A DNA stretch of 64,000 nt from an uncultured Planctomycetia bacterium (GTDB taxonomy: Bacteria; Omnitrophota; Gorgyraeia; JABMRG01): NCBI GenBank assembly GCA_964634945.1, contig CAZWMG010000008.1, positions 268-64,267 of the forward strand. The letters run 5' to 3'. Shown here in pieces: positions 1 to 40,626 of the stretch. The notes beneath the pieces are model-generated. The model was given only the letters and a program-made list of their open reading frames with translations, was not told the DNA's origin and did not search any database. How positions within the stretch are numbered: the stretch's first letter is position 1; each line of letters begins with the position of its first letter. The position numbers were made by a program, and so were the translations under genes.

Positions 1-720
1 CCTAATACAATATCAACTGAAGACTCATCAACAGGCTCTAATTCATATGACTGGACTATACCATATGACCTATCTACAACCGTTAGGATAAAGATTACAG
101 ATGCTGCTCAATCTGCTGTATATGCTCTATCCGACGTAAATTTTACTATTGCGGTTCCTGAAATTACAATTACATCACCTAACGGTACTGAGCAGTGGTA
201 TGCCAATTCTTCACACGACATTACCTGGGAAGCAGACGGAGACGTAACACATGTAAAATTGGAATACTCTACTGATGGAGGCTCAACCTACCCCAATTTA
301 ATAGCAGCCGCCGCGCCTAACAGCGGGACAACAGGTTCCTACTCTTGGACATTGCCATTTGATGTTTCCAGCCAGGTTAAGGTAAGAGGCACGGATGCTT
401 CAGGTGCAGCTTCAATCAGCCTTTCAGGTTCAGCGGCAGATAAGGTATCGGCAAGCGCTTCTTCTTATGAAAGTGATGACAAAACACTGGTTTTGGATGT
501 ATTGACTGATTTTGTGACAGGTGATGATTTAGTTATTTCAGGCCTGTATTTTACCGAATTCAGCATATCAGATGCTGATAATCTTGAGCTGGATATATAT
601 AATTCAGGCATAGCTTATGCCTTGGATGATAAGACTATTAAGGTTGTTGGAGAGTCAGGGTATCCGTATATTGGCGGAACCGGTGACGGATGGGATTCTT
701 TTGAGAGCGAAAGTTTTTAA
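1..720 (+). CDS. C-terminal part of a secreted Thr/Ser-rich beta-sandwich repeat surface protein (5' partial; frame open from nt 1)
   Basis: Frame +1 is open from nt 1 to the stop at 718-720. Repeated modules of the form ItW..g..v.I.YStdgG.tYp..I....n.GsY.WT.P have the same shape as those in the 2145-4286 protein. The C-terminal ~100 aa (LELDIYNSG...YIGGTGDGWDSFESESF) is homologous to the C-terminus of the 2145-4286 protein. Confidence 0.6.
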   Translation, partial: PNTISTEDSSTGSNSYDWTIPYDLSTTVRIKITDAAQSAVYALSDVNFTIAVPEITITSPNGTEQWYANSSHDITWEADGDVTHVKLEYSTDGGSTYPNLIAAAAPNSGTTGSYSWTLPFDVSSQVKVRGTDASGAASISLSGSAADKVSASASSYESDDKTLVLDVLTDFVTGDDLVISGLYFTEFSISDADNLELDIYNSGIAYALDDKTIKVVGESGYPYIGGTGDGWDSFESESF

Positions 721-740
721 CTGAAAAAGGGGTGATTAAA

Positions 741-2039
741 ATGAGAAAACTTATATTAATCTTACTATTGGCTATGGCCTGCGGGTTTTTAACTGTGCCG
801 GTATTTGCTAACAACGTGGCTGTTTCCGGTGTCAGCCTGCAAAATAAGGATTTAGGCGAAGGTACAATAGAGGTGAAGTTTACCTTAACCCAGGACAATA
901 CCTTTTCAGGCACAGACGACAACAGCGCGGCTTTTTATGACCGTATCTGGGTGTTCGTCAAATACTGGGTAGTAGGTTCAGACTCTGAAACAACCGGCTG
1001 GCACCACGCTACCTTGACTACAGGCGGCGCTGTTACGCCCACTTCTGACGGCATGGGCGCGTTCAGCTCAACAGGCGCGGACCAGGTTATCAAATGGTCA
1101 TATGTCACTGACAGTGTGGACCCTCAGAATACGGTAAAGGTTAAGGTCTGTGCTGTTGAAATGGTTTATATCCCCGCAGGTTCGTTTGTGTATAATTTAG
1201 CGGGCATAGGCGGTTCTACCTTTAATAACTACGGCGCAGGGTCACAGGTAACAGTTACCTCTGCCTCTGATATCCCCACAGGCGCCGCCGCAGGCTGGCC
1301 CAATGGTTATTCCGCGTTTTACATCGCCAAATATGAGGTCTCGCAAGGCCAGTACGCGGATTACCTTAATATGCTTTCAGCCTCAGATGCCGGCTCAAGA
1401 TATACAGATAATTACGACAGTTCCAGGCAGTCAGTCTCTTATACTTCAGGCAATGATTATGGCTCAAGGTACTCAGCAGGCAGGCCTGCCAGGGGCCAAA
1501 ATTACCTATCCTGGGATGACTGCAGGGCATATGCATCCTGGTGCGGGTTAAGGCCTTTAACAGAGATGGAGTTTGAAAAGGCAGGCAGAGGCGGCAGTAC
1601 AAGCAGTACCAATGTTTATCCATGGGGAGAGACCGCCCCCTCTTCTACTACTTATACGTTTGATGAGGCGACAATCAGCCAGTACTACGCCTGTTATAAT
1701 AATACATCAGCAGGCCCTACTGATGTGGGCCATTACCTGTCAGGTGATATAACCCGCACAGACGCCCAGGCAGGAGCCTCGGTTTATGGCGTTACAGACT
1801 TAAGCGGAAGCCTCTGGGAGCACCTGATAAACTGTGAGCATTTATCAGTGCCCTCTGATGGAAATGGTACCCTTACCTGGCCTATAAGTTGGCCGGACGC
1901 GGCATCAGGTAAGGGCATCCGCGGTGGTAGCTGGTACAGCGTTGCTACGCACTTGCGCGTGTCGGGCCGTGGCGGCGCTGGCAGCGCGTACGCGACTCGG
2001 AGCCACCATTTTGGGTTCCGCCCGGCCAGGACTCCTTGA
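741..2039 (+). CDS. DGR target protein 1: secreted protein with a C-terminal FGE-sulfatase/C-type-lectin-fold domain that carries the variable repeat
   Basis: Signal peptide MRKLILILLLAMACGFLTVPVFA, with an ATG at 741 behind the RBS-like aaaaagggg; the ORF track uses an upstream GTG at 732. FGE-family motifs are present: VEMVYIPAGSF, YIAKYEVSQGQY, RLPTEMEFEKAGRGG, YPWGE, GSLWEH, RGGSWYS and FGFRP. The last 126 nt are the variable repeat. Confidence 0.85.
   Translation: MRKLILILLLAMACGFLTVPVFANNVAVSGVSLQNKDLGEGTIEVKFTLTQDNTFSGTDDNSAAFYDRIWVFVKYWVVGSDSETTGWHHATLTTGGAVTPTSDGMGAFSSTGADQVIKWSYVTDSVDPQNTVKVKVCAVEMVYIPAGSFVYNLAGIGGSTFNNYGAGSQVTVTSASDIPTGAAAGWPNGYSAFYIAKYEVSQGQYADYLNMLSASDAGSRYTDNYDSSRQSVSYTSGNDYGSRYSAGRPARGQNYLSWDDCRAYASWCGLRPLTEMEFEKAGRGGSTSSTNVYPWGETAPSSTTYTFDEATISQYYACYNNTSAGPTDVGHYLSGDITRTDAQAGASVYGVTDLSGSLWEHLINCEHLSVPSDGNGTLTWPISWPDAASGKGIRGGSWYSVATHLRVSGRGGAGSAYATRSHHFGFRPARTP
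1913..2038 (+). repeat. DGR variable repeat VR1 (126 bp, ends at the target stop codon)
   Basis: Identical to VR2 at 5951-6076. Aligns without gaps to the TR at 6666-6791, with 16 mismatches at TR adenines and one non-A mismatch at the 3' end. Confidence 0.85.
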
Positions 2040-2105
2040 TGAGTTACACTTTGTTCTTTGAATTTTTTACGCTTTGGTTTTTATTTGGCAGGAAGCGGTG
2101 TTTAC

Positions 2106-2138
2106 GAGGGACGAGGGACGAGGGACGAAGAGACGAGG
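2106..2138. repeat. Tandem heptamer array GAGGGAC x3 (plus a degenerate GAAGAGAC GAGG) immediately upstream of the 2145 start codon
   Basis: The tandem is directly visible: gagggacgagggacgagggacgaagagacgagg. Confidence 0.5.
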
Positions 2139-2144
2139 TAAACG

Positions 2145-4286
2145 ATGAATAAGCGACTGATAATAACAGTAATCTTGACGGCAGCAGCAGCCATTACAGG
2201 CATCTGGCCTGTCTTTGCCGACCAATATACCGGCGGTACAGGTGACGGCTGGTCCGCAGCTGAATCCGCGGAGCTTGATATCGACGGGCCAGTAGTGGTT
2301 ATCTCAAGCGCCCAAAACCAGATATTCAAGGTGAGCGATTACAAAACCGCCGCAGCTGATATTACCATAACCGATTCTGCGGGAGGGGCTGTTACAGCTG
2401 CTAATGATATCAGGATTACAGTTCCTACTTCTTTTGGTGTGAAATGGAAGAGTTATTTTAGCGGCACTATCGATACTTCAGATGAGAACTTTGCCATCTT
2501 AAACCCAATAGCTGTATCAGCAAGCAATATAGACGTAACCACAGGCGCAGGCCCTTATATAATAGGTGATACTGTAACAGTAACCTGGGATAATACAGTA
2601 GCGACAGGAGACGGCGCAGGTACTGATAATGATGATGTGACAGGCGTGACATGTGATTTCTCATCAATGGAAGGCGGCGAAACAGTAACAATGTATGATG
2701 ATGGTACCAATGGAGGTGACGCTACAGCTGATGATGATATATGGACCGCAAGTTATGATATAACAGCAGGTACAGTAGATACAGCAACAGCCACAGTAGC
2801 TGTTACAGCTACAGACGGCACAAGCACAAAGACCACAGCAGACACCACAGACTTAACAGTAGATAACATAGTACCTGTATTAACAGATGGTAATATATCT
2901 ATTACATCAACCGGCTCAGGCACAGGAGGCGTTTACCTTGCAGGTGACACTGTCACAGCAGAGTGGGATGACACAGCTTCAGGCGATAACAACACAGATA
3001 CCATCTCAACAGTAACCTGTGATTTCTCTGCACTTGGTGGAGGAGCAGCAGTATCCATGACAGACTCCTCAGACACCTGGACAGCATCATATGATATAGA
3101 CAATACCTCAACCACAGGAACACACGCTGTATCATTATTAGCTACTGATAACGCGGGTAACACCACAACCACAGCAGATACAACAGACATTGAAGTAGGA
3201 GCAAGCACATTAACCCTAACATCTCCTGACCCCGGTACCACACACTCATTTAAGGCAGGTACTTCTCAAACAATAGCCTGGACAGCTGGGGGCGATACAA
3301 CAAGTGTTACCATCACTTATTCAACCAATTCCGGCGAAACCTATCCTAATACCATAACCACAGTAGCAAATTCCGCGGGAGCTAATTCCTATGATTGGAC
3401 AACAGCTTCCGATTTAAGCAGTAATGTGAGGATAAAATTGCATGACACTGATTGTTCCGCTGTTTATGACACATCGGATATTGATTTTACCATAGCCATC
3501 CCGACCCTGACTTTGTTAACGCCTTCAGCTTCAGGCATAACAATGTCCGTAGGTGACTCATATAATATTACATGGTCATCGGAAGGCGCGGTATCAGATG
3601 ACTTAAGCTTGTATTTTTCCACAAATTCAGGGACAGCTTACCCAGATACCATCTCTTCCTCAGAAGCAAATGACGGTACCTATACATGGACAGTACCCGC
3701 GGAAGCCGGGTCAGAGCTAAAAGTCAGGATACAGAATGTTTTTTATCAGGAATTGAACAATACCTCTGATGCTGATTTTGATGCCGGAACCGCTTCAAGC
3801 CTTACTGTTTCAGGCAGTGGAAGCAACGGAGCCCTTCAATTAGAAGATTATGTCTTAAGTTTTTCTCCTATGACTATTACGGATAATACAGGGGTCATTA
3901 CCGCGGCTAATGATATAAGAATAAGGATACCTTCTGCTTTTGGCATGACATGGAATACAGCGCATACTACAGCTGTTATTACAGGCAGCGCCGCGGGCAA
4001 GGTATCTACAGAAGTCAGTTACGAGTCTTCTGACAAGGTTTTAGTGCTGGATGTAATCTCGGACTTTACTGCCGGAGACGCTATTGTTGTTTCAGGGCTT
4101 GCTTTCAATAATCTTAGCGCTGTTTCATCATCGGATAATCTGGAACTGGATATATATAATACAGGGGCAACTTATATAACTGACAGCAATCATATTGAAA
4201 TTAAACCTGCTTCTTCCGCCTTGTTTATTGGCGGAACAGGTGATGGATGGGATTACGCGCAGAGCGCGGATCTGGTATTGGAGTAG
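2145..4286 (+). CDS. Secreted Thr/Asp-rich surface protein made of repeated beta-sandwich domains (713 aa)
   Basis: N-terminal signal peptide MNKRLIITVILTAAAAITGIWPVFA is followed by QYTGGTGDGWS, and the C-terminus ends FIGGTGDGWDYAQSADLVLE. Internal repeats recur (ITITDSAGGAVTAANDIRITVPTSFG ... MTITDNTGVITAANDIRIRIPSAFG) alongside YSTNSGETYP..Y.WT modules. The leader is paralogous to that of the giant gene at 8004. Confidence 0.7.
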   Translation: MNKRLIITVILTAAAAITGIWPVFADQYTGGTGDGWSAAESAELDIDGPVVVISSAQNQIFKVSDYKTAAADITITDSAGGAVTAANDIRITVPTSFGVKWKSYFSGTIDTSDENFAILNPIAVSASNIDVTTGAGPYIIGDTVTVTWDNTVATGDGAGTDNDDVTGVTCDFSSMEGGETVTMYDDGTNGGDATADDDIWTASYDITAGTVDTATATVAVTATDGTSTKTTADTTDLTVDNIVPVLTDGNISITSTGSGTGGVYLAGDTVTAEWDDTASGDNNTDTISTVTCDFSALGGGAAVSMTDSSDTWTASYDIDNTSTTGTHAVSLLATDNAGNTTTTADTTDIEVGASTLTLTSPDPGTTHSFKAGTSQTIAWTAGGDTTSVTITYSTNSGETYPNTITTVANSAGANSYDWTTASDLSSNVRIKLHDTDCSAVYDTSDIDFTIAIPTLTLLTPSASGITMSVGDSYNITWSSEGAVSDDLSLYFSTNSGTAYPDTISSSEANDGTYTWTVPAEAGSELKVRIQNVFYQELNNTSDADFDAGTASSLTVSGSGSNGALQLEDYVLSFSPMTITDNTGVITAANDIRIRIPSAFGMTWNTAHTTAVITGSAAGKVSTEVSYESSDKVLVLDVISDFTAGDAIVVSGLAFNNLSAVSSSDNLELDIYNTGATYITDSNHIEIKPASSALFIGGTGDGWDYAQSADLVLE

Positions 4287-4338
4287 TCCATAGTCCATAG
4301 TTGACGGTCAATAGTTGATAAGAACAGGAGAAAAGAAG

Positions 4339-4689
4339 ATGTTTAAGTTTGAGAAATTACAAGTCTGGCAAAAAGCGGTTGATTTTACCGCTGATATTCA
4401 TGGATTAAGCAGAAAATTCCCTAAAGAGGAATTATATATTCTAACAAGCCAGATTAAAAGAGCGGCGGATTCTATAGCCTTAAATGTAGCAGAAGGTTCA
4501 ACTGGACAGAGTAACAAAGGATTTCAACAGTTTATTGGTTATGCGATAAGATCAGCAATTGAGGTGGTACCCTGCCTTTTTGTAGGCAGAAAAAGAAAGA
4601 TTATAAGCGAAGAAGATTTTAATATGTTTTATAGCGACGCAGAAGAGATAGTTAAAATGTTACAAGGATTGCGTAACTCACTGGGATAG
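4339..4689 (+). CDS. Four-helix-bundle protein of the Avd / 23S rRNA intervening-sequence protein family
   Basis: MFKFEKLQVWQKAVDFTADIHGLSRKFPKEELYILTSQIKRAADSIALNVAEG matches the pattern of this four-helix-bundle family. An ATG at 4339 sits behind the RBS aggagaaaag; the ORF track starts at 4315, inside that RBS. Confidence 0.75.
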   Translation: MFKFEKLQVWQKAVDFTADIHGLSRKFPKEELYILTSQIKRAADSIALNVAEGSTGQSNKGFQQFIGYAIRSAIEVVPCLFVGRKRKIISEEDFNMFYSDAEEIVKMLQGLRNSLG

Positions 4690-4760
4690 TTTTTAGTTCA
4701 TAGGCTGTTGACTATCGACTATTGACTATCGACTTTGGACTAAAAAAGGAGGCAACCAAA

Positions 4761-6077
4761 ATGAGAAAACTTATTCGTATCTTGCTATTGACTATTGCCA
4801 TACTATGGACTGTTGACTATGGACTATCGACTGCAATAGCAAACGCCAACAACATAAGCGTGAGTAATACGGTGTTGCAGAACCAGGATGTGGAAAACTC
4901 TACTGTAGAGGTGAAATTTGACATTACATGGCAAAACTCTTTTTCCGATACAGACGGTAACGGCGCGGATTTTTATGACAGGGCATGGATATTTGTTAAA
5001 TACTGGGTGGTGGACGTGGACTCTGAAACAACCGGTTGGCACCACGCTACCTTGACTACAGGCGGCGCTGTTACGCCCACTTCTGATGGAAAAGGGGCAT
5101 TTGTTAATATCGGCGAAGACCAAACCGTAAAATGGAACTACGGCGCGGATGATATAACAGTTTCATCTAATGTAAGGGTGCGTCTTGATGCTGTTGAAAT
5201 GGTTTATATCCCCGCAGGTTCGTTTGTGTATAATTTAGCGGGCATAGGCGGTTCTACCTTTAATAACTACGGCGCAGGGTCACAGGTAACAGTTACCTCT
5301 GCCTCTGATATCCCCACAGGCGCCGCCGCAGGCTGGCCCAATGGTTATTCCGCGTTTTACATCGCCAAATATGAGGTCTCGCAAGGCCAGTACGCGGATT
5401 ACCTTAATATGCTTTCAGCCTCAGATGCCGGCTCAAGATATACAGATAATTACGACAGTTCCAGGCAGTCAGTCTCTTATACTTCAGGCAATGATTATGG
5501 CTCAAGGTACTCAGCAGGCAGGCCTGCCAGGGGCCAAAATTACCTATCCTGGGATGACTGCAGGGCATATGCATCCTGGTGCGGGTTAAGGCCTTTAACA
5601 GAGATGGAGTTTGAAAAGGCAGGCAGAGGCGGCAGTACAAGCAGTACCAATGTTTATCCATGGGGAGAGACCGCCCCCTCTTCTACTACTTATACGTTTG
5701 ATGAGGCGACAATCAGCCAGTACTACGCCTGTTATAATAATACATCAGCAGGCCCTACTGATGTGGGCCATTACCTGTCAGGTGATATAACCCGCACAGA
5801 CGCCCAGGCAGGAGCCTCGGTTTATGGCGTTACAGACTTAAGCGGAAGCCTCTGGGAGCACCTGATAAACTGTGAGCATTTATCAGTGCCCTCTGATGGA
5901 AATGGTACCCTTACCTGGCCTATAAGTTGGCCGGACGCGGCATCAGGTAAGGGCATCCGCGGTGGTAGCTGGTACAGCGTTGCTACGCACTTGCGCGTGT
6001 CGGGCCGTGGCGGCGCTGGCAGCGCGTACGCGACTCGGAGCCACCATTTTGGGTTCCGCCCGGCCAGGACTCCTTGA
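4761..6077 (+). CDS. DGR target protein 2: paralog of target 1 with a divergent N-terminal third and an identical FGE/C-type-lectin-fold C-terminus carrying the VR
   Basis: ATG at 4761 behind the RBS aaaggagg, followed by signal peptide MRKLIRILLLTIAILW. Nucleotides 5189-6115 appear identical to 1151-2077, and the last 126 nt are the VR. Confidence 0.85.
   Translation: MRKLIRILLLTIAILWTVDYGLSTAIANANNISVSNTVLQNQDVENSTVEVKFDITWQNSFSDTDGNGADFYDRAWIFVKYWVVDVDSETTGWHHATLTTGGAVTPTSDGKGAFVNIGEDQTVKWNYGADDITVSSNVRVRLDAVEMVYIPAGSFVYNLAGIGGSTFNNYGAGSQVTVTSASDIPTGAAAGWPNGYSAFYIAKYEVSQGQYADYLNMLSASDAGSRYTDNYDSSRQSVSYTSGNDYGSRYSAGRPARGQNYLSWDDCRAYASWCGLRPLTEMEFEKAGRGGSTSSTNVYPWGETAPSSTTYTFDEATISQYYACYNNTSAGPTDVGHYLSGDITRTDAQAGASVYGVTDLSGSLWEHLINCEHLSVPSDGNGTLTWPISWPDAASGKGIRGGSWYSVATHLRVSGRGGAGSAYATRSHHFGFRPARTP
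5951..6076 (+). repeat. DGR variable repeat VR2
   Basis: gggcatccgcggtggtagctggTacaGcgTtgctacgCac... compared with the TR shows substitutions (capitals) only where the TR has A, apart from a G/C difference in ccagGact versus ccagCact. Confidence 0.85.
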
Positions 6078-6126
6078 TGAGTTACACTTTGTTCTTTGAA
6101 TTTTTTACGCTTTGGAAAAAGCTCGT

Positions 6127-6474
6127 ATGAGTCAGACAACGCCTATAGTAAGTAAGACCTATGATTTTATTCTTTGGGTTTTACCGAAATTGGCAAAATT
6201 TCCCAAAGACCAAAGGTTCTTGCTGGGAGACAGGATTGAAACAACGTTGCTTGATTGTCTGGAGCTTTTGATTGAAGCAGTATATTCTAAGGAAAAAAGG
6301 AAGGTGTTAAGAGATGTTAACCTTAAACTTGAAAAATTACGGTTTTTATGGCGAATCAGCCGCGATATGCGCTATACCCCTCTCAGAAGCTATGAGTTTG
6401 GCGCGAGAAGTATTAATGAGATTGGTAAAATGGCAGGCGGTTGGATTAAGAGTGAATTACGCCGGAGTCTCTGA
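6127..6474 (+). CDS. avd: DGR accessory variability determinant (Avd), a basic four-helix-bundle protein
   Basis: It occupies the canonical position between target/VR and TR. The motif KTYDFILWVLPKLAKFPKDQRFLLGDRIETTLLDCLELLIEA matches the Avd family, and the protein is small and basic. The ATG at 6127 is preferred over the TTG at 6112 used by the ORF track. Confidence 0.75.
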   Translation: MSQTTPIVSKTYDFILWVLPKLAKFPKDQRFLLGDRIETTLLDCLELLIEAVYSKEKRKVLRDVNLKLEKLRFLWRISRDMRYTPLRSYEFGARSINEIGKMAGGWIKSELRRSL

Positions 6475-6665: not shown

Positions 6666-6791
6666 GGGCATCCGCGGTGGTAGCTGGAACAACGATGCTA
6701 CGAACTTGCGCGTGTCGGACCGTAACAACGCTGGCAACACGAACACGAATCGGAACAACAATTATGGGTTCCGCCCGGCCAGCACTCCTTG
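6666..6791 (+). repeat. DGR template repeat TR (non-coding, rich in AAC codons)
   Basis: 126 bp collinear with both VRs. The sequence aac aac gat gct acg aac ... aac aac gct ggc aac acg aac acg aat cgg aac aac aat tat is adenine-rich exactly at the positions where the VRs vary. The overlapping ORF 6314-6901 is therefore spurious. Confidence 0.85.
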
Positions 6792-6913: not shown

Positions 6914-7957
6914 ATGAAAACTTACAAGCATTTATTTGAAAAGATTACGAGTTTTGAAAACTTACTGCGCGCCGCAAAACAGGCGCAGAAGGGCAAGAAG
7001 ATGAAACACAATGTTAGTGAGTTCAACTTTGGATTAGAAAGCGAAATCCTAAAATTGCAGGATGAGCTTAAGAACCAGGCCTACAGGCCCGGCCGATATA
7101 GGCATTTTTATGTTAATGACCCTAAGCGCAGGCTAATTTCTGCCGCGCCTTACAGAGACAGGGTCGTGCATCATGCCTTTTGTAATACTATAGAGCCGTT
7201 ATTTGACAGGACTTTTATATTTGACTCTTACGCTTGCCGTGTTGGAAAAGGAACGCATAAAGCTATGAGCAGGTGTCAGGAATTTATAAAGAAAAACAAA
7301 TATGTTTTACAGTGTGATATAAGCAAATACTTTTCATCTATTAACCATGGGGTTTTACTTTCTATTCTTTCCCGAAAGATTAGGGATAAAAAAGTGATGT
7401 GGCTGGCAGAGCTTATTATTAATTCAGCATTAACTGTTAATGGCTTAACAGGCATTCCTATAGGTAACCTGACAAGCCAGTTTTTTGCTAATCTTTATCT
7501 TAATGAGCTGGACTATTTTGTGAAGTTTGACTTAGGTGATAAGTGTTATCTTCGCTATATGGATGATTTCCTGATATTTAGCGAAAATAAACAGCATTTA
7601 CATCAAGCTAAAGAAAAAATTAACCAATTCTTAGAAAGCTTTTTAAAGCTTAATTTGCACCCCAAAAAATCATCGGTATTACCCATAAACTTGGGTGTAG
7701 ATTTCTGTGGTTTCCGGATTTTTAAATATTTACGTAAATTGCGAAAAAGCAATATAATGTTTTTTAAAAAAAGAGCCGTAAAGATGCAGAGAGATTTTTG
7801 CAGGCAGAAAATTAATATAAATAAAATTTCTCAATCTATAAGGGCTTGGGTCGCCCACGCTAACTGGGGAAATACTTATAGGTTGCGCGAAAAAGTAATG
7901 GAGAATTTAATTTTTAGCAGAAGTTATATGAGTACAGAAGATCGGTCTAACAGGTAA
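6914..7957 (+). CDS. DGR reverse transcriptase
   Basis: RT motifs are present in order. The DGR-specific IGNLTSQFFANLYLNELD (I/LGxxxSQ) stands in place of the group II intron QGxxxSP, and the catalytic motif is YMDDFLIF. The gene lies directly downstream of the TR. Confidence 0.9.
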   Translation: MKTYKHLFEKITSFENLLRAAKQAQKGKKMKHNVSEFNFGLESEILKLQDELKNQAYRPGRYRHFYVNDPKRRLISAAPYRDRVVHHAFCNTIEPLFDRTFIFDSYACRVGKGTHKAMSRCQEFIKKNKYVLQCDISKYFSSINHGVLLSILSRKIRDKKVMWLAELIINSALTVNGLTGIPIGNLTSQFFANLYLNELDYFVKFDLGDKCYLRYMDDFLIFSENKQHLHQAKEKINQFLESFLKLNLHPKKSSVLPINLGVDFCGFRIFKYLRKLRKSNIMFFKKRAVKMQRDFCRQKININKISQSIRAWVAHANWGNTYRLREKVMENLIFSRSYMSTEDRSNR

Positions 7958-8003
7958 ACCGGCTAACAGGTTAACCGGCTAACCAGTAGATGAGAGGTTA
8001 AAA

Positions 8004-11000
8004 ATGAATAAGCGACTGATAATAACAGTGATTTTGACAGTAGGAGTAGCCATTACAGGTATCTGGCTTGCCTTTGCGGATCAGTATACAGGCGGCGCAG
8101 GTGATGGCTGGAGTTATTCCCAGTCTCAAGATCTTCAAATGACAGGGCCTGATGTTATTTTTACTTCAGCCGAGGGCAGTGTTGGCCGTTTGGGCCAGGT
8201 GCCTTCAGGTTATTTTATTTCCGATGTTTTGGATACCAATGGCAATTCTACTTTAGGCGTCTTAAGCTGGATAGCGGATTTATCCGCGGGCGGTGAGATA
8301 AAGTTCCGAATAGCGGGCAGTGACGACAACATCACCTGGACCGATTATTTAGGCCCGGACGGCACAGCCGGAACTTATTTTACCTCTTCAGGGGAATCTA
8401 TCCCATCCGCGTTAGATGCTAAGCGTTATTTAAGATACAAGGCCTATCTTACAACAGCAGATTACACGCCTGTTTTAGACAGCGTAAGCATACAGTTTGC
8501 GGATGATAATGAAGCAAAAAGAATAATAAGTGATACCTCTGATAATAATTTTACTATCCAGACAGCCTCTATTGTTACTGCCGATGTTGAGCCTGTAAGC
8601 CTTGTAGCCGGCGTAACAGGAACTGTGGTTGTCTCGTTTACTTCTATTAACCCTATCCCCGCGGATGGCAGCATAGAGGTAACATTCCCAGTAGAATTTG
8701 ACGTAAGCGCGGTAGGAGATACCGCTTCATCATCAACAATGGACGGCTCATTAACAGTAACCGTATCAGGACAGGTGATAACTATTACCCGCAGCGGCGG
8801 TAGTGAGCAGCCGGTTGCATCAGAAAGTTTAACCTTAACCAACATTAAGAATTCCAATACTTCCGGCATAACAGGGACATACCAAATAAAGACTATTCGT
8901 TCTGACGGAAACATTATTGATGAAAAAACAGATGTTTCAGCGTCAACTATTGTATCAGCAGCTACAGCAAGTGTAACGCTTAATGCTCCTGATGATATTA
9001 CAGCAGGAGGAGCAAGAGCGGCCTATACTGTCACTCGTTATGATGAGTTTAGTAATTTAAATGATCAGGGAGCTGAGACATTCTATCTATATACTACATC
9101 ACAAGGACAGAATGTTGGGTTCTATGATGTTGTTTCCGGAGGAAGCGCGGTTACAAGCATAGATGTTGCTGATGGCACATCAGAATCTGATTTCTGGTAT
9201 TATGATGAGTTGATGGGTACATTTACTAATACTATTTCAGAGATCAATTCCGGCGCTGTATATGATGTAGGAGATAGTAGTAGTACAGATTTTGGAGATG
9301 GCACAGCATCTGGTATTGCGGTTTCAGGCTCAGGTTCTAGTGCTGAATTGGCCCTTTTAGCGAAGAACCGTTGTGGGGTGGTTTATGCAACAGATGGAAT
9401 ATATGATACCCCAGGAACTGCTAGAGGCGTTTATGTTTCCGGAAACTACGCTTATGTGGCTGATGATACGAGTGGCTTAAAAATTATTAATATCTCTAAT
9501 CCAGATTTGCCAACTCTAACTGGGACGTATGGTACTGTTGGTAATGCTCGTGGTGTTTACGTCTCCGGCGACTACGCTTATGTTACTAATCAGATTGCCC
9601 TTGAAATTATTGACATCTCCACCCCCTCTTCACCAACCTTGACTGGGAGATACGACACGTCCGGTATGCCAGTAAATGTTCATGTTCTTGGTGATTATGC
9701 CTATGTAGCTGACTGGGGTAGTGGACTTCAAATTGTTGATATCTCTACACCTTCTTCACCAAGTTTGGCAGGAACATGTGATAGTACTCGTGCAGCAGAT
9801 GTCTGTACCTCCGGTAACTATGCTTATGTTGCAGACGATACAAGCGGACTTCAAATTATAGATATTTCAAATCCTGCTTTACCTACCATTGTAGGAACTT
9901 ATGATACTGCTAATAAGGCAACTTGTGTTTATGTTTCCGGAAACTACGCTTATGTGGGTGATTATCAAGATGACTTGGTAGTTATTGACATCTCTAATCC
10001 TTCTTTGCCAAGCCTAGTCGCAACTGTTAATACTACCGGTGAGCCTAACAGCCTATATATTTCAGGTGATTATCTCTATGTTTCCGATTATTATAGAGAT
10101 GTAAAAATAGTAGATATTTCAACCCCATCTTCTCCTTTTGTAGCTACATTAGTAAAAACTGATTCAAATTATCCCCGAGGTGTTTTCGTTGCTAATGATT
10201 ATGTCTATGTAGCTGATGGTACAAGTGGTTTGCGCATCAAGGATATGACAGATTTGACGCCACCTTCTATCATTACATCTTATGATACTTCCAGTAATGC
10301 CTGGGACGTATGTGCTCTAGGTGATTATGTCTATGTAGCGGATGCGGGACATGGCCTGAAAATTATTGATATCTCTACACCTTCTTCACCAGTTTTAACT
10401 GGAACATATGATACGTCTAGTGACGCCCATGGTGTTTATGTTTTATCCGATTATGCCTATGTAGCGGATGGTTCAAATGGCCTCCAAATCATAGATGTTT
10501 CCAGCCCAGCATCGCCAACAAGGACTGGGACCTGTGATACTCCCGGTGACGCACAAAAGGTCTATCTATCTGGCAACTACGCCTATGTTGCTGATGGTTA
10601 TAGTGGTTTACAGGTGATTGATATTTCTGATTTGTCGTCGCCAACCCTAACTGGAACATATGATACTCCTGGTTTTGCCAGAGATGTTTATGTTTTAGGT
10701 GATTACGCTTACGTGGCCGATAATAGCTCTAGTGGTTTACAGATTGTTGATATTACTGATCCATCTTTGCCGAGTGCTGTTGGGTCGTATAATATTAATG
10801 ATGAGGCCCACGGTGTTTATGCCTCCGGCAATTATGCTTATGTAGTTTTTAATGGCGCAGGTTTGCATATTATCGATGTTTCCACGCCTTCTTTGCCGAC
10901 ATTAACTGGAGCGTACGATACTTCTGGCTATGGCAGAGGCGTTTATGTCTCTGGTAACAATGCTTATGTGGCAGATGATGCAAACGGTTTACAGATTATC

Positions 11001-14000
11001 GATATCTCTAACCCAGCCTTACCAGTCTTGGTGGGCATTACGGAAACTCCGGGTAGTGCCAGGGCAGTTTATATTTACGGTATTTATGCCTACGTTGCTG
11101 ATTGGAATTTTGGAATTGTCATTACTGATATTTCAGGCTATTCTTCTTCCGGCACATTTGCATCACGTATCATGGATAGCGCATCAAATGAAACATTTAG
11201 CACTGCTTCCTGGAATGGCGTTGTTCCAGCTGATACTACCTTGACTATCAAGGCCCGCACTTCTGATGATTCAGCAATGAGCGGAGCAACTGATTGGGCG
11301 AGCTGTTCAGAGCTTACAAGTGGTCAGGATATATCAGATGCAACCGGAGTAACAGACACAGATAGGTATATTCAATACTATATTGAGATGGCAACGAGTG
11401 ATGTAACAGCTACCCCGTCTCTAAGTGATATTGCATTTGATTATAGCCGCTCAGCTACAGGTGGTATCTATGATACAGATAGTCTAAATGTTAAACATGC
11501 TGCTTCGAATAAGATAGCATTTACAACAGATATCACAACTCCTCAGAAAGCAGGCGCTGTATTTACTCTGCCGGCTATCAAGGCATTGGATACATATGGT
11601 AATTTATTAAATAATGACTATGGCGCCTCTGCCTATGCAGAGACTATCACAATCAGTTACGCGCTAAGTGGCGCCTCTGATGCCCCGGATGATAATGGAA
11701 CAGACTCGTTTACTACCAATGTAGCCTTTGCCAATGGTGCGTCCACCACCTCTTTAAGTACTATTCTATACAGGGCGCAGGATACAACCGTAACTCCTTC
11801 AACAGAAGCTGCGGGATTAACGGGCCAGACAACAGAGTCTAATTCTATAACAGTAAATCCTGAAACAAAGAACAAGGTAGTATTTACGCAAGAGCCGTCC
11901 GCGACAGGAAAGATAAATTATCCATTGGATACACAGCCTATAGTTGTGATACAGGATGTTTATGGTAACCAGACAGCTGATACAGACGCGATAACTCTGT
12001 ATGACTCGAGTTCAAATGAGGTATATATGGATGCAAGCGGTACATTGTCAGCAGCATCCAATCCTTTATCAGCTACTGATGGACAAGCGGAATTCAGCAA
12101 CCTGGAATACAGTTTGCCAGGTTCTATATATCTGTATGCCGAAACCGCAGGTATTGACGCGGACTTTTCACAGCAGATAGCGCTATCAGTATCATCAACT
12201 TCTACGGTTGATGCGGCGGCAACGCCAGCGCCTGATTTTGATCTTGTACCGACTAATGATGATATAGACCATAGCTTTACTGTATTGAAGTTTAAGATTA
12301 CAGACGCGGGAGTAGATGATACCCCAACCTTGATAGACAGGATAAAGGTAGCCATATCAGGCACAGGCGCAAGCGCCGCTACTGACATAACCTGGGCAGG
12401 CCTGTATATAGGCGAGACCCAAATCACCACTGTTACAGGTGAGGCTATAGCAAATGATTATATAACATTCGGCACTCTTCCGGATGGCGATTCTAACGCT
12501 GACCTTTACAGCTTAGCTGATAACACATCCGAAGAATTTACAGTTTATATTTATATGAAAGACGGAAAACTTACAGCAACAGAGGATGATACATATATCT
12601 TTGATGTTGATGAGACATTGATAGGAGTAGATAGCGGGTTATCGTCTCAAATGGCATCCGATTCCGCAAGCGTAACTCCGGTTACAGGGACCATAGATGT
12701 TACAATCTCTTATATAGAGGCTGTAACGGCTGCCGGAAATGAAGATGTTGAATTAACAGCAGGTATTGGTAATGATATAAAGCTTCGCGGTGTTGATGTT
12801 AATAAGAACGTAGATGAGGATTATATAGGTAACCAGACATTTAAGTTCTCAGGCCTGAACCAGATAGGAGTCTATAAACCTAAGACAGACGCTACTGTAT
12901 TTGGAAACAACAAGACCATTAGTTTTACAGCAGGTGTCTCAGCGACAACGACTCTTACTGCTTACGCAAAAGAGACAGGTACTCTATCAGCCCAGGACCA
13001 GAATCACCTATCTTATGAAACATACGCGCTAAATGTTACTACTGTAGCTGCACAGGGTGATAGTATAGTTCTTACAAGCGGTAACAACCAGTCCGGCGCG
13101 ATAAACGCGGTATTATCACAGGAGTTTATAGCTACTGTATCTGATGCTTATGCAAACCCTGCCACGGGTGAGGTTGTTGAATTTGCGGTAGATACAGCCC
13201 CTAATGGAGCAAGCGGCCAGAGCCTGAGCCAGCCGCAGGATGACACTGACGATGACGGCTTGGCATCTGTTCTCTTTACTCTGGGCAATGTAGCGGGAGA
13301 CTATTTGATTACCGCAACTTGCGGTAGCATAACAGGGTCTCCATTGACTTATACCGCGACAGCTTTAGAGCCTACAGGACTAAATATAGCAAGCGGCAAT
13401 AATCAGGTTGACAAAAAGGTTGCAGAGGATCTTAATCCTTTTGTTGTGGAACATACAGCCTCCGGCGATATACCTGTTCCTAACGTGGATATTGATTTTG
13501 AGATTATAAGTTTTCCTGATGGGGCTACCGGACAGTCATTGTCAGCGTCAAGCGCTACAACCAATTCAAATGGCCAGGCGACGGCCACCCTTACCCTTGG
13601 CACGAAGATAGGCAGTTATGTTGTGCGCGCTAGTGTTGGAGCGTTTAGTGTTGATTTCACAGCGACCGCTCTTCCTGAGACGCCTAATAAAATAATACTT
13701 TCAGGCCCTAGTTCCGTAGCGGCAGGAGGCGTATCAGAAAGCTTTTCAATATATATAAAGGATACATATGATAATTTAAGCGGCGTAACAAGCGCCACCA
13801 CAATTGGTGCGTCGAGTAGCGCAAGCGCTACATCAAGCTTTTATAGCGACTCGCTCGGTGAAAGCCTTCTCGTAGATGATAGTATATTGTTAAGCATTGA
13901 TACCCATAGCGCTACTTTCTATTACAAGGACACGCTGGTTGGCGTTCCGACAGTTACGGTATCTGTAACGAGCGGACAGGCAGGACTGAATACCGATAAT

Positions 14001-17000
14001 AATAATTCCGGTATCAGTGTTATACCGGGTGGCATACATAGCTTTAAGGTTACAGGTTCAACATCGGCTATGGTTGTCGGAGGAAGCCGTGAGATTACCG
14101 TAACAGCGTATGATGTCCATGATAACGTAAAGACCAATTATAATGGTGATATAAATGTAATATTCTCAGGCGTTGCAGTCTCTCCATCTGCTCAAGCTCC
14201 AACATGTTCTGATAAGGATTCAAATGATATAGCTGTTGGCAGTTCAACTACACTTACATTCTCATCAGGCGTTGCCACAACCACTCTAAAGCCTTATAAG
14301 GCAGAGGAAGTTGCAATAAAGGCTACAGCAGGTGCTGTTACAACAGCTTCTGATAGTGACCTTGAATTTGTTGTGCGCCACGGCGCGCACGACCACCTAA
14401 AATTCGCCGCTAATCTGCCTACTCCGCAGATAGCAGGTAGTGAATTTACATTAGAGACCACCATTGATGTTGTTGATATCTATGCAAATGTATGCGATGG
14501 CGCGAATGGCGCCACTGCATATGCTCAGACAGACAAGACTGTCACATGGACTCTAAGCGGCGAAGCTAACGGCCCCTTAAGCGGAACAGATACATTTACA
14601 AATCCTATTTCATTTAGCGCTGGGCATTCAGTGAATACCTTAATCGCTACTTTATACCGCGCTCAGAATACTACAATAACTCCAAGTGTTGTTGGTCTAA
14701 GCGGAACTAATGAGGCATCCAATACAGTAGTTGTTGCAGGAGGAGAGGTTAATAAGATCCGATATACGCAGCAGCCTTCAGCTACATGTATTACTACTCA
14801 AGCCCTGGCTCAACAGCCGCATGTAGCAATATCTGATGCGTATGGTAATGATGTAATATCAGCAGAAGGAAATATCTCTTTGGCAGCATCAACAACAACC
14901 GGCACATTTACACCTGTTGCAAACGGCACCTTAAGTGCCGCGTCATTGAGTTTAGCGCTGTCATCAGGCGCGGCGGACTTTAGCGAAGTAACCTATAACT
15001 ATCCTGAGAATATCTATATAAGAGCCTCAATATCCGGATATGAGCTGAATAATATCTATTCTTCATTAATAGCCTTCTCAACCGCTGATGAGGCTACTAT
15101 ATCAGCAGGGGCACTATCAGAGCCTTCATCTATCTCATCCTTGTCTGATAACGTGCTTGAGTTAACAGACGTCTTTGATTTTAAGGTTACTGACGGCGGG
15201 ACAGATGGGTATGCTACAAAGGTAAAACAGATAGTTATTACTCAGTCGGCGAATAACACAGCTGAAAGCTGGACAGACTATATCCAGGGCGCGTATATAA
15301 CAGACGGCACAACACAGATATTAGCTATTGTTGAAGAGACAATGCTTGTATTTGGAAGTGGATCAAGTATTATTTATTCTATAAGCAATGGCAGTCATAA
15401 GACATTTACATTGAAGGTATATCTAAAACCCACATTGCCGGCAGGAGCTGATGGCAAGGTAATCGGTTTTAGCGTTGATGCCGATACTTATATAGTTTTA
15501 CATAATTTGAGCTCGCAATTCCCTACAACCTCACCTCTTAGCACAGAGCCTGAGGTAGCTGTTGTGGCTACTAATTTTACGGTTACAGGTGACGCTACAA
15601 TGCTTGCGGGGACTTCAAATACGCTTACCCTGACAGCCGTAGATGCTAATGGCAACAAGGATAAGGATTATACGGGTGATAAGGCATTAGTCTTTAGCGG
15701 AGCTAATGTGTCAACAAATGGAAATAACCCTACGTGCACTTCATTTAGCGGTGCGGATATTGATTTTGCTGACAATACGATAATTACGTTTGTCGATGGA
15801 GTTAACTCATCGACTATTACCATGAAGCTTTATAAAGCAGAAACAGTTTCTGTAAGAGCAGGAGACGGGACACTGGTTACCGCATTAGCTGACGCTCTTC
15901 AGGTTACGGTTTCAGGTGGTACAGCATCAGACCTTCTATGGGGTACCGAACCCGGAACAGTCGCCGTGGCCAATGCGCCATGGAAGGAATTTACTGTAAA
16001 TGTCACTGATGCTTATGGTAATATCGCCTCAAGTGACGCTGATGTGACTATCAGTGCATCGGGTGGGACATTGGCGGATTCTGCTACAGCAGTAGTTGCC
16101 GCGTCATCAGGTGTCGCGACCTTCAGGAATTTTGCTGTTACATGTTCAAGCTATCCAGGTATAGTAGAGATTACAGGCGAATCAGACGGGGTAACGCCAA
16201 CACCGGCATCTAGTTCTGTAACTGTCGCGGAGAAATATTCAGTAACAGTCAATGTCAATGATTATACGAGTGGTGCAGCCCTTACGGAGCTTGCGTTTGA
16301 TCTTCTCTCAGACGCTGGTGTTACAATGTCTAGTGAAGGATTCCCAATGACCGGAAACAGCCCGTTTGAGTTTGAGTTGCCTTATGGCACATATACATTG
16401 TCATTCGAAAAAGAACAATATATGGCACACAGCACAGAGAAGATAGCTGGAGTGGCTGCCGATGCACTCGATGGAACATATGATAACGATATAAGCTGGA
16501 CAGTTATAGTATCATCCTTAGCAGAGGCTACGGCAGATTATAATGTAAAGAGCGGTATTACCTATGATGAGACTACCGATAGGCTTACTCTGCGTCTCTG
16601 GATTGAAAAGCGCGGCAAGATGATACTTAATGATGACGTAAATAAGCTGGGCCCTGCTACTATTGAAATTTATGACGATGCGACTTCTCAATGGCTAAGC
16701 GCTATAAGCCTTACACCGCCTAGCTTAACGAATACGACATCAGGCCTATATTACAAAGTTGTCAGTAACGTTAGCAGTGGAGGCACACCGGCACTAGTCG
16801 AGGGAAAGACATACTTTGCCAGTTGTAAGATAAATTATGGCGGCCTTGACGGAACAGGCAGGCTTTATGAGGGCGGCACGACATTTGCTCTTACTGTAAG
16901 CCAGAGTCTAAAGGCCGTAACTGAAGGCATTGAAATCATGACCGATGATATCAAGGCTGAGGTAACAGGGGTTACGCAATCAGTATCTGATCAGGCTGCC

Positions 17001-18258: not shown

Positions 18259-18999
18259 ATGAAAAAAAGATGGATATTAACAGCTTTAATGGTAATTATA
18301 TTTTCATTCTTAGCGCAGGAGGCGGAATGCGGCATTACCTTAAAGGCCTTGGTGGTAAATCCTTCCAAGACAAAGACGCAGACAGCCCAACTTAAGGCCT
18401 ATCTGCCAAAAGAGGCATCTGCGGACGATGTTATCGATTTGGGGGATTTAAAGATAGACTATGATATTGAGAAAGGCCTTTATTTTGTGCATCAGAAATA
18501 CAAGCTTAAACCGGGAGAGAGTATAAGCCGTGAGATAGAGATAAAAGATGTATGGGTGATATCAAAGGCAGAAATAGATGATCTTACCCGCCAGGCAGCG
18601 GATCTAGCCGAAAGGCTTAAAGGTACAGCCTATTTTAATATGGCGGTTACGTTGCAAAAAGATATTGAAAGCAAGGCGGAAGAGATTATGAATAGGCAGG
18701 AAAAGGCCTTAAATGCCAATCCCCGTGCGCATATAGGCGCCTATAGAAGCAATATGAATACGCTTGATGAGACTACGGCCTCTCTGGCAAAATTAGAGAA
18801 GATGGTCGAAGAGCTGCAGGAAGATAAAGGTTCAGGCTCAGAAAAGATTCACGTTAAGGCCACATGGCGGCTCATTGTAGCCATGGTTGTTGCGTTAGGC
18901 GTTCTCTCATTTATATTCTTTGTCATATGGAATCGTCAGGCTGCGGTAGAAGGAGCCAAGCGCAAAGCTGAGCAAGGTGATAAGAAAATTAGCTTCTAA
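18259..18999 (+). CDS. Hypothetical membrane-anchored protein with an N-terminal signal/TM segment, a coiled-coil middle and a C-terminal TM helix
   Basis: MKKRWILTALMVIIFSFLA at the N-terminus and LIVAMVVALGVLSFIFFVIW near the C-terminus. No recognisable catalytic motifs. Confidence 0.55.
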   Translation: MKKRWILTALMVIIFSFLAQEAECGITLKALVVNPSKTKTQTAQLKAYLPKEASADDVIDLGDLKIDYDIEKGLYFVHQKYKLKPGESISREIEIKDVWVISKAEIDDLTRQAADLAERLKGTAYFNMAVTLQKDIESKAEEIMNRQEKALNANPRAHIGAYRSNMNTLDETTASLAKLEKMVEELQEDKGSGSEKIHVKATWRLIVAMVVALGVLSFIFFVIWNRQAAVEGAKRKAEQGDKKISF

Positions 19000-19067
19000 C
19001 TTTACAAAATAGTGCAATACTCAAAATGTAAAGTTAGCGCTTAACTTTACAAATAGGAAAATAGTGC
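18996..19067. repeat. REP-like palindromic element plus a partial second copy, overlapping the stop codon of the upstream gene
   Basis: ctaactttacaaaatagtgcaatactcaaaatgtaaagttag has 11-bp arms (ctaactttaca / tgtaaagttag). Near-identical copies occur at 40119-40162 and 40583-40626. Confidence 0.7.
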
Positions 19068-19988
19068 ATGGATGTTTCTGACCTGATTAGAAAAGGCAAG
19101 ATTAGCAGGTTATTTCGCGCCAGGAATAAGATCAGTTTTCCCGACGCGATATGTCATATTACCCAGCATGCCGCAGGAAAGGAAAAATTATTTTCAGAAG
19201 ACTCAGATTATTTGTACATGCTGCACCTTCTCAAGGCAGTAGCAGAGAAGTATAAAATCGATATTTTTTCTTTTGCCTTTCTCCCCAACCACTTACACAT
19301 CTTGCTTCAATTATCAGACGACAATCTCTCTTTGGCGATGAAAAGCCTGTTTGAGAGCTATGCTAAGTTTTACAATAATAAATATAACAGGAAAGGCCAT
19401 TTATTCTGCGGCTCATTCAGGCAGGCCCTCTGTTTTAGCGATAGTTATCTTTTGGCCATATCTTTGTATATACACATAAATGCTGTTAAGGCAAGGCTGG
19501 TTAATCGGCCTGAGGATTACCGCTGGTCATCCTGCGCGTTATATTCATCCGCTTTTAATAAAAAGACATTTGTTAACTATAAATTCATTCTAGAGAGCCT
19601 GGATGAGGATTTGGCAAACGCGCGAAAGATCTATTCTGCATTATTGCGTAGCTCAGAAAAGGTAAAAACAGAAGAGGTTAGGGTAGATATCAGGGCATTG
19701 GAATCTTTTAAAACAAGGGCAATGGAGTTTTTTCCGGCTTTAGTAAAGCGTACAGGCAGAGATGCCCCAGGTTTTTTAGAAGATGAGAAATTAGAGGAAG
19801 CGGTGTTGCAATTAAGGCAGATGGGAAGGTTGTCTACTCCTGAGAGCTTTACAGCGCGCAAGAATTTGATTGAGCAACTGAAGGCAAGAGGCTATACAAT
19901 AAAGGTTATAGGCCAAATGCTGGGCATATCCAGACAAGCGATATACAAGACGCTTAAGTTGACAAATTCTGCAATGCACAAAATGTAA
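19068..19988 (+). CDS. REP-associated tyrosine transposase (RAYT; IS200/IS605-like Y1 HUH transposase domain) with a C-terminal HTH extension
   Basis: HUH motif in LPNHLHILL. Family pattern YNRKGHLFCGSFRQ....YIHINAVKARLVNRPEDYRWSS carries the catalytic Tyr. The C-terminal GYTIKVIGQMLGISRQAIYKTLK is a helix-turn-helix. The gene is flanked on both sides by REP-like palindromes. Confidence 0.7.
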   Translation: MDVSDLIRKGKISRLFRARNKISFPDAICHITQHAAGKEKLFSEDSDYLYMLHLLKAVAEKYKIDIFSFAFLPNHLHILLQLSDDNLSLAMKSLFESYAKFYNNKYNRKGHLFCGSFRQALCFSDSYLLAISLYIHINAVKARLVNRPEDYRWSSCALYSSAFNKKTFVNYKFILESLDEDLANARKIYSALLRSSEKVKTEEVRVDIRALESFKTRAMEFFPALVKRTGRDAPGFLEDEKLEEAVLQLRQMGRLSTPESFTARKNLIEQLKARGYTIKVIGQMLGISRQAIYKTLKLTNSAMHKM

Positions 19989-20056
19989 ACTTAAGCGTTA
20001 AGTTGACAAATTCTGCAATGCACAAAATGTAAACAAAATGTAAAGTTAAGCGTTAA
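19953..20056. repeat. REP-like direct repeats overlapping the RAYT stop (aagttgacaaattctgcaatgcacaaaatgtaaac x2 plus aaaatgtaaagttaagcgttaa)
   Basis: Tandem copies are visible. They share the aaaatgtaaagtta core with the REP at 18996. Confidence 0.65.
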
Positions 20057-40123: not shown

Positions 40124-40162
40124 CTTTACAAAAAAGTGCAATACTCAAAATGTAAAGTTAGG
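40119..40162. repeat. REP-like palindrome (copy 2) overlapping the glnS stop codon
   Basis: cctaactttacaaaaaagtgcaatactcaaaatgtaaagttagg. Together with the upstream aaaaagg it forms a 51-bp perfect direct repeat with 40576-40626. Confidence 0.7.
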
Positions 40163-40528: not shown

Positions 40529-40582
40529 GTTAACAAGAACGATTTTTGTTAAAGACAATATACCCTGAGGCACCCAAAAAGG

Positions 40583-40626
40583 CCTAACTTTACAAAAAAG
40601 TGCAATACTCAAAATGTAAAGTTAGG
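40583..40626. repeat. REP-like palindrome (copy 3) just upstream of thiE
   Basis: Identical to 40119-40162. Confidence 0.7.

Follow-up and report, generated by a model that had tools for sequence, protein, structure and literature searches.

Two genes in a 64,000-nt stretch of DNA, the whole of which was analysed and is referred to here as the window, share an identical block that includes the variable regions (VRs) of a diversity-generating retroelement (DGR). The question raised by this locus is whether the identity of two VRs that face a single TR stems from a recent duplication or gene conversion, an inactive DGR, or an artefact of assembly, these being the options offered by a preliminary description. 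The host is an uncultured bacterium whose nearest relatives in the genome database are Omnitrophota.

A complete DGR with one TR and two target genes

The locus is a complete chromosomal DGR, in which one Avd-TR-RT module is combined with two target genes. In the following features, c1 and c2 designate the two cassettes found in related bacteria.

741-2039, + strand: DGR target gene 1 (432 aa), with about 135 aa of N-terminal domain between the signal peptide and an FGE/CLec-fold domain that ends in VR1
1913-2038, + strand: VR1, with 19 differences from the TR
4761-6077, + strand: DGR target gene 2 (438 aa), in which a c2-like CLec block follows an N-terminal domain of c1 type
5951-6076, + strand: VR2, the same sequence as VR1 in this contig
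6127-6474, + strand: Avd accessory protein (NCBIfam NF033474 DivGenRetAVD, 114.6 bits, cutoff 80; Pfam bAvd)
6666-6791, + strand: TR, containing 32 adenines, each at codon position 1 or 2, and 11 AAC and 2 AAT codons
6914-7957, + strand: DGR reverse transcriptase (RT) of 347 aa (Pfam RVT_1, 4e-23)

Among solved structures the RT was best matched by 8ub7_A, a reverse transcriptase of 328 aa that we take to be the BPP-1 enzyme (5e-53), group II intron RTs following far behind (6e-27), and its score with the group II model stayed under the cutoff of that model. Pfam domain FGE-sulfatase (PF03781) was detected with 79 bits in both targets (4e-22 for target 1) and extends to the last residues of both. 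Apart from VR1 and VR2, the TR is the sole TR-like site within the window, and 18 of the 19 mismatches between VR and TR are located at TR adenines, none of them at third codon positions. The TR/VR pairs, Avd, the RT and the FGE/CLec domains bear out the earlier proposal of two DGR target genes, and the presence of a single TR and two VRs agrees with the further proposal that one TR has two acceptor sites.

The remaining mismatch, C-to-G at 2030 (G in the VR versus C in the TR, 2030/6783), marks an IMH-like end. VR and TR diverge after CTCCTTG, and the same asymmetry of the 3' ends is present in both cassettes of the relatives; as judged from sequence, it is consistent with the IMH versus IMH* directionality feature of DGRs. 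Each VR terminates 1 nt ahead of the stop codon and forms the C-terminus of its CLec-fold target. A hairpin or cruciform directly after the VR is required in BPP-1 and is not universal among DGRs. No BPP-1-like hairpin was found 3' of the VRs, DNA folds of 2005-2100 and 6043-6138 giving z = -0.25 and z = +0.45, respectively, in comparison with shuffled sequences. Both copies retain the elements required of an acceptor site, namely sequence homologous to the TR, a G/C difference marking the VR end and a conserved tail of 38 nt, and each copy presumably accepts cDNA on its own.

An identical 927-nt block behind divergent N-terminal domains

The shared sequence and its surroundings within the two genes comprise the following features.

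1151-2077, + strand: block copy 1 by exact comparison, identical in full to Logan contig L101 from run SRR8146440
5189-6115, + strand: block copy 2 by exact comparison, running on into Avd as in the relatives
2040-2077, + strand: 38 nt after the stop codon, present in both copies and almost invariant in the relatives; homology between copies 1 and 2 ends here
980-1052, + strand: short patch of the N-terminal domain that has been homogenised, 69/73 identical to its partner at 5018-5090

Positions 1151-2077 and 5189-6115 match at 927/927 nt and the match ends at exactly those coordinates on both sides, confirming an identity that had been claimed base for base. Such an exact repeat within 64 kb is far above chance expectation. 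Its content is also as first described, consisting of the entire FGE-sulfatase/CLec domain (PF03781 in both genes), the VR, the stop codon and 38 nt further; the block starts at the boundary between N-terminal and CLec domains and ends with the final base of shared homology. Outside the VR, 801 nt show 0 differences between the copies. The change is abrupt and lies inside continuous homology, identity being about 65-70% up to 1150 and 100% from 1151. Over the 5' parts (741-1150 and 4761-5188) identity amounts to 64.5% for DNA and 57.7% for protein, so that the earlier figure of roughly 90% was wrong, whereas the description of these parts as mosaic was correct: the patch of 73 nt is identical at 69/73 positions between the window genes and at 49/73 between the c1 and c2 paralogues of the nearest relative.

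The block combines with N-terminal domains of two cassette types

In relatives that are about 82% identical to the window, the loci L011, L013 and L016 each contain both c1 and c2 as full cassettes, which consist of target, Avd, TR and RT and are mutually 80% identical. Positions 1-2077 of the window are collinear with 14532-16629 of L011, the context of its c2 cassette (82%), and target 1 is c2-like over its full length. Target 2 resembles c1 at 4845-5188 and c2 from 5189 onwards, and the gene upstream of it is c1-like as well. Outside the VR, the block shares 84.6% identity with c2 versus 78.4% with c1. Copy 2 continues into Avd, and homology of copy 1 is lost at 2077. As the block is of c2 type in both genes and the N-terminus of target 2 is of c1 type, the block must have arisen by recombination, either by gene conversion or by duplication and then deletion, which supports the earlier suggestion of a recent duplication or gene conversion. 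As for the route we infer one of these two, non-reciprocal copying and duplication followed by deletion both yielding the present arrangement; an intermediate genome was not found among species-representative genomes, JGI metagenomes and 77 related loci. The ancestor would have possessed both cassettes, complete and in tandem, a state kept in the relatives. Homologous recombination between these cassettes may have joined a CLec/VR module of c2 type to each of the two N-terminal domains, after which one set of Avd-TR-RT would have remained.

That the patch at 980-1052 was merely held by selection was considered and rejected, because c1 and c2 of the relative agree there at just 49/73 positions. 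The patch thus appears to be a second converted tract, suggesting that conversion between these two genes recurs.

No long near-identical block between neighbouring targets was detected at the 77 related loci from species-representative genomes, in which paralogues are 65-84% identical; this negative result carries little weight, as repeats of this kind interrupt short-read assemblies. The pattern of a conserved 49-nt tail gave 0 matches in the species-representative genome collection, which therefore does not include the source genome, and in JGI metagenomes it was matched solely in the relative species of about 82% identity. In an exact-sequence look-up neither full-length target protein was on record, and the NCBI contig of 70,003 nt was their sole source, so that the locus has no second full assembly.

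The genes next to the DGR components are as follows.

1-720, + strand: secreted 'A-family' gene, 3' part, leaving the window at the left end (ORF open from base 1, stop at 720) and adjoining target 1 on its upstream side
2145-4286, + strand: A-family gene (713 aa) between the targets, matched to gene families D10, D12 and D18
4339-4689, + strand: four-helix-bundle protein of the 23S rRNA IVS protein family (Pfam PF05635, 1.5e-33; TIGR02436, 106.6 bits)
8004-18107, + strand: giant LVIVD-repeat surface protein (3367 aa; Pfam LVIVD, 14 stretches, 4e-163)

The 713-aa gene has a start like that of the giant gene and at its C-terminus resembles the gene that precedes c1 in the relatives. The giant LVIVD gene adjoins the cassette downstream both here and in the relatives (synteny with L010 and L011). 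Heptamer arrays flank the IVS-family gene as tandem repeats at 4284-4301, 4710-4742 and 4785-4832, and this gene is absent at the corresponding position from the gene tables of relatives L011-L013. Between 741 and 8000 no transposon was seen, and the IVS-family gene with its heptamer arrays is the single odd insert.

VRs differ at TR adenines between samples

Logan contigs are derived at k=31 from a graph that Minia3 has simplified and that contains each 31-mer once per run. Two of them, L007 and L096, come from two other sequencing runs and contain VRs that differ from the window VR. In L007 there are 23 differences, all at TR adenines, and the other 801 nt of the block are identical; in L096, 26 of 27 differences are at TR adenines, the sole exception being a T-to-G change at the second base of the contig, and 1485 nt downstream are identical. 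All three VR alleles (window, L007 and L096) are in frame. As these versions differ at TR adenines in otherwise identical sequence, it is evident that the DGR is active, with adenine-specific turnover of the VR between samples, and mutagenic retrohoming is ongoing in the population. The assignment of the L007 VR to copy 1 and of the L096 VR to copy 2 was rejected, since the span from the last variable VR site to each flank (2011-2078 and 6049-6116) is 68 nt and linkage is lost at k=31 over the 66-nt constant tail.

In the relative species the c2 target was represented by 12 different VRs in 12 assemblies, all residues before position 400 being invariant. The c1 target of this species had one protein sequence, VR included, on four contigs, suggesting that some VRs in the family turn over slowly.

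Origin of the identity of VR1 and VR2

The identity of VR1 and VR2 is either due to a very recent copy or an effect of assembly. In the k=31 graph of SRR8146440 the block forms a single 927-nt node (L101) that branches at both ends. During assembly, the 927-nt repeat would become one graph node in which VR variants are merged, and output of this node twice would result in identical VRs; an assembler that writes a single node twice produces identical VRs whatever the reads contain. A short-loop resolver of SPAdes type, run at k=55, would make the copies alike by design. That the identity in the contig is such a consequence of assembly rather than the true state of one genome is slightly more probable than the opposite, and the whole explanation, combining a working DGR, recombination between cassettes and VR identity through assembly, is considered reasonably probable.

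The VRs might instead be truly identical, if conversion or duplication of all 927 nt, VR included, was too recent for either copy to have been rewritten, an explanation to which we give somewhat less than an even chance. The 0 differences over 801 non-VR nt argue for it, as do the converted patch at 980-1052, with its indication of recurring conversion between both genes, and the absence of any point difference across more than 20 kb when runs of this population are compared, from which everything at the locus appears to be young. The same block boundaries, however, were found in other runs whose VRs differ, suggesting that the scaffold was homogenised before the populations split and that the VRs changed afterwards. 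In SRR8146440 the block with the window VR is one unbroken 927-nt contig, but this is uninformative because bubbles as large as this one are merged when the graph is simplified, as follows from the bulge rules of Minia3 and SPAdes. Slow VR turnover, as in the unchanged c1 target of the relative, would favour true identity, and the window VR could be the state of both copies directly after conversion, the accession of SRR8146440 being the lowest among the runs. Against this, the product with the window VR occurs in one run alone, whereas the copy-2 flank contig L001 was recovered in 11 samples.

It is very improbable that the second copy does not exist and that the assembler doubled one gene, a proposal for which perfect identity is the only support. 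The k=31 graphs of independent runs branch at 1151, 2077/2078 and 6115/6116, refuting the option of a duplication artefact. Contig L007 starts at 1151, L008 at 2048 (2077 minus 29) and L001, the same contig in all 11 samples, at 6086 (6115 minus 29). L007, L008 and L097-L100 cover the segment between the copies as far as 5066 or 5086. As graphs of several independent runs break exactly at the block ends, two copies with different flanks really exist in the reads; moreover, the N-terminal domains and the upstream and downstream flanks differ and match the c1 and c2 contexts of the relatives. Most improbable of all is an inactive DGR with identical VRs as frozen relics, which has its sole support in the VR1/VR2 identity of this one contig and is refuted by three in-frame VR versions in three runs, changed in L007 and L096 at 23 and 26 TR adenines with all else unchanged save one T-to-G, and by the intact state of TR, Avd and RT.

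Comparison with known DGRs

Multi-target DGRs formed by target-gene duplication have been described, including a duplicated cassette without its redundant RT in Pseudogulbenkiania (Schillinger et al., 2012; PMC3521204). Similarly, paralogous targets share one RT and TR here and a redundant RT was lost, whereas the identical VRs and the 100% identical CLec domain in the contig distinguish the present case. In DGR2-4-5 of Thiohalocapsa PB-PSB1 the C-terminal CLec/VR was duplicated with or without RT and accessory genes (Dore et al., 2023; bioRxiv 10.1101/2023.09.22.558884). Common to both systems are a CLec/VR recombined onto divergent N-terminal domains and the loss of redundant DGR components; transposons and MITE-like repeats are implicated in Thiohalocapsa, whereas the present junctions lie within homologous sequence.

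With the DGR of Bordetella phage BPP-1 (mtd, Avd, TR, bRT) the locus shares adenine-specific transfer from TR to VR, a C-terminal VR in a CLec-fold protein, the presence of Avd, an RT of the same clade (8ub7 match, 5e-53) and a VR whose 3' end differs from that of the TR. Unlike the BPP-1 element it is chromosomal, has two targets with a CLec of FGE type instead of Mtd type, and lacks a hairpin after the VR. The FGE-type CLec fold (Pfam FGE-sulfatase; matches to FGE and SUMF structures) resembles that of TvpA-type targets of Treponema denticola, but the N-terminal domain is unrelated and uncharacterised, and TvpA itself was not among the sequence matches of the targets to solved structures.

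Significance of the locus

The comparison carries a practical warning, as identical VRs of paralogous DGR targets in short-read assemblies may be made by the assembler and are no evidence of inactivity. It is unlikely that the identity is both real and recurrent, with conversion copying a newly selected VR and the CLec scaffold around it between targets; retrohoming breaks at the VR end might then initiate conversions, and two different N-terminal domains would present one binding specificity that the DGR had found. As an instance of a known DGR pattern the case is clear but ordinary, and it opens no new question. It provides a well-resolved natural example of how a DGR target repertoire is built, in which a second N-terminal domain acquired a CLec/VR module, the TR and RT that were redundant disappeared and diversification went on. 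Comparison with relatives supplies the ancestral state, with two cassettes, as well as the derived one.

The duplicated target genes belong to a complete diversity-generating retroelement

The final 126 nt of the two target genes have a third copy, 85% identical, that was detected by a repeat search and is the template repeat (TR) of a complete diversity-generating retroelement (DGR) with the following components:

741-2039, target gene 1, with VR1 at 1913-2038
1151-2077, copy 1 of the 927-nt identical block
4761-6077, target gene 2, with VR2 at 5951-6076
5189-6115, copy 2 of the block
between target 2 and the TR, Avd gene
6666-6791, TR
after the TR, gene for a 347-aa reverse transcriptase (RT)

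The TR differs from each VR at 19 positions, 18 of which are TR adenines; the remaining difference (C in the TR, G in the VR) lies nine bases before the end, beyond which TR and VR diverge. None of the 32 TR adenines falls on a third codon position, and the TR contains 11 AAC and 2 AAT codons. No TR-like site besides the TR and the two VRs was found in the window, and the locus does provide two acceptor sites for one TR, as had been claimed in the preliminary description. The Avd protein scored 114.6 bits with the NCBIfam model DivGenRetAVD (cutoff 80), and the top solved-structure match of the RT was 8ub7, a 328-aa reverse transcriptase (5e-53), well above group II intron enzymes. Both targets carry an FGE-sulfatase-type C-type-lectin (CLec) domain extending to the last residues, and the 38-nt tail after the stop codon is conserved. 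Folding of the sequence after the VR did not reveal a BPP-1-like hairpin, in which respect the locus differs from BPP-1.

The neighborhood is chromosomal, with genes for ATP synthase, type II secretion, pilins and a 3367-aa LVIVD-repeat protein, and the closest species-representative genomes are Candidatus Omnitrophica MAGs with protein identities of 57-60%. Between the two targets, a four-helix-bundle gene (23S rRNA IVS protein family, 4339-4689) is located between the heptamer arrays TAGTCCA x2.6 (4284-4301) and GACTATC x4.7 (4710-4742), and looks like an insertion because relatives do not have it at that position. A related array (4785-4832) enters the part of target 2 coding for the signal peptide and explains its 6 extra residues. 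The 713-aa gene and the giant LVIVD gene each have a further short tandem array directly 5' of the start codon (ACGAGGG x4.9 at 2104-2138 and a 16-nt unit x2.3 at 7947-7983, respectively). Only 46 nt (7958-8003) separate the RT from the giant gene, a position at which relatives hold a nucleotidyltransferase-HEPN gene pair (contig L010, 4365-5106). Four copies of a 51-nt element that contains an inverted repeat (CTAACTTTACA...TGTAAAGTTAG) are present in the window: two (18988-19995) bracket an ORF that encodes an IS200-like Y1 transposase domain (19068-19988), and the other two, 464 nt apart (40112-40162 and 40576-40626), are 100% identical. Diverged paralogous genes with 71-72% DNA identity lie at the window's right end (60260-61456 with 63350-63847, and 52501-52575 with 61576-61650).

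The shared block carries signs of recombination between paralogous cassettes

Direct comparison of the two block copies, which include the CLec domain, the VR, the stop codon and 38 nt beyond, confirmed that 927 of 927 positions are equal and that identity stops at precisely these coordinates at both ends. Beyond 2077 and 6115 the downstream sequences are unrelated. The 5' parts (741-1150 and 4761-5188) are still homologous, with 64.5% identity in DNA and 57.7% in protein when aligned, a divergence much greater than the roughly 90% or lower identity first estimated. Their described mosaic character was upheld by a patch (980-1052 and 5018-5090) identical at 69 of 73 positions and bordered by sequence of about 50-75% identity.

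Contigs L010-L014 and L016, taken from ENA and JGI assemblies, represent a relative with about 82% DNA identity. It possesses two complete tandem cassettes, c1 and c2, each with target, TR and RT, which match one another at about 80% over 2.5 kb. Window positions 1-2077, which hold the upstream gene, target 1 and its 38-nt tail, are collinear with the c2 context. Target 2 has a c1-like N-terminal domain and is preceded by a c1-like gene; from 5189 on, its remaining part and the Avd-TR-RT set behind it are c2-like. Outside the VR, the block matches c2 at 84.6% and c1 at 78.4% identity. Copy 2 runs on into Avd as in the relatives, and copy 1 loses homology at 2077, where it joins sequence like the start of the next gene of the neighboring family (1-720 and 2145-4286, 713 aa); the block thus stops on its 3' side simply where the available homology runs out. 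Its 5' end coincides with the boundary between N-terminal and CLec domains. A second homogenized tract is formed by the patch at 980-1052, c1 and c2 of the relative being identical there at only 49 of 73 positions. Together, these features are characteristic of recombination between paralogous cassettes, by a route that might have been gene conversion, or duplication followed by deletions. The c1-like N-terminus joined to a c2-like block in target 2 thus bears out the recent recombination that had been proposed as duplication or gene conversion.

Apparent recombinants occur in the relative as well. Contig L014 (2625-3464) carries a c1 target followed directly by a c2-type TR and RT, an order produced either by deletional recombination or by chimeric assembly. 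The VR of L010 (2361-2485) has c2/TR2-type marker sites in its 5' part and c1/TR1-type sites in its 3' part, which suggests cDNA homing from the TR of the other cassette or VR-to-VR conversion.

The DGR has two copies of the block and varying VRs

Whether VR1 and VR2 are truly identical was considered with Logan contigs, for which one k=31 graph per sequencing run is simplified by Minia3, each 31-mer occurring once per run. There is a slightly better than even chance that their identity is an assembly effect, one repeat node having been written twice. Because both copies share a constant tail of 66 nt beyond the last variable site, they merge at k=31, and a VR version can therefore not be assigned to a flank. 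In run SRR8146440, contig L101 coincides exactly with the 927-nt block and carries the window's VR. A bubble of about 125 nt in the VR is small enough to be merged by Minia3- and SPAdes-style simplification, so that an unbroken 927-nt contig is no proof of equal VRs. The arrangement U-R-M-R-D is a simple graph loop in which loop-resolving short-read assemblers write node R twice, making the copies identical by construction, and a 70-kb contig across the repeat is beyond the reach of an assembler without repeat resolution. At somewhat less than an even chance, both copies could still hold the VR from the time of conversion. This is favored by the absence of point differences between runs over more than 20 kb in this population and by SRR8146440 having the lowest accession number among these runs, an order by accession and not by date.

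A spurious duplication, raised earlier as a possible artifact, was rejected. Contigs from different runs begin at 1151 (L007) and at points 29 nt before the ends of the two copies (2077 and 6115), namely 2048 (L008) and 6086 (L001, present in 11 samples). Several contigs carry the inter-copy segment as far as 5066 or 5086. Branching of the graph at both block ends is thus seen in independent data.

An inactive DGR, also suggested earlier, was refuted by VR versions from other runs that differ, at all but one site, at TR adenines while the remaining sequence is identical. Contig L007 (SRR31802794, 1151-5066) has 23 differences from the window, all in the VR and all at TR adenines. Contig L096 (SRR31802792, 5955-7561) has 27 VR differences, 26 at TR adenines and one at its second base, followed by 1485 nt identical to the window. 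All three versions are in frame with changes at the expected residues, and this variation between runs indicates that the DGR is active. For the c2 target of the relative, each of 12 assemblies shows a different VR, with all residues before position 400 invariant. In the c1 target of the relative, the whole protein with its VR is the same on four contigs (L011-L014) from different assemblies, and so the neighboring cassettes appear to differ greatly in activity. Upstream of both, L011 (425-3855) carries another Avd and RT (413 aa) module with a candidate TR/VR pair (1498-1676 and 1933-2111, 88.8% identical), which would be a third DGR within about 20 kb.

Multi-target DGRs have been described in which the targets arose by duplication, their VRs are independent and a redundant RT was lost (Schillinger et al., 2012, PMC3521204). 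In Thiohalocapsa, the C-terminal CLec/VR region was duplicated and recombined onto divergent N-terminal domains (Dore et al., 2023, 10.1101/2023.09.22.558884), and similarly the CLec/VR region studied here is shared by divergent N-terminal domains. The locus is one more case of this already described target duplication and recombination in DGRs, and what distinguishes it is an unusually clean comparison of ancestral and derived arrangements together with a conversion tract at zero divergence.
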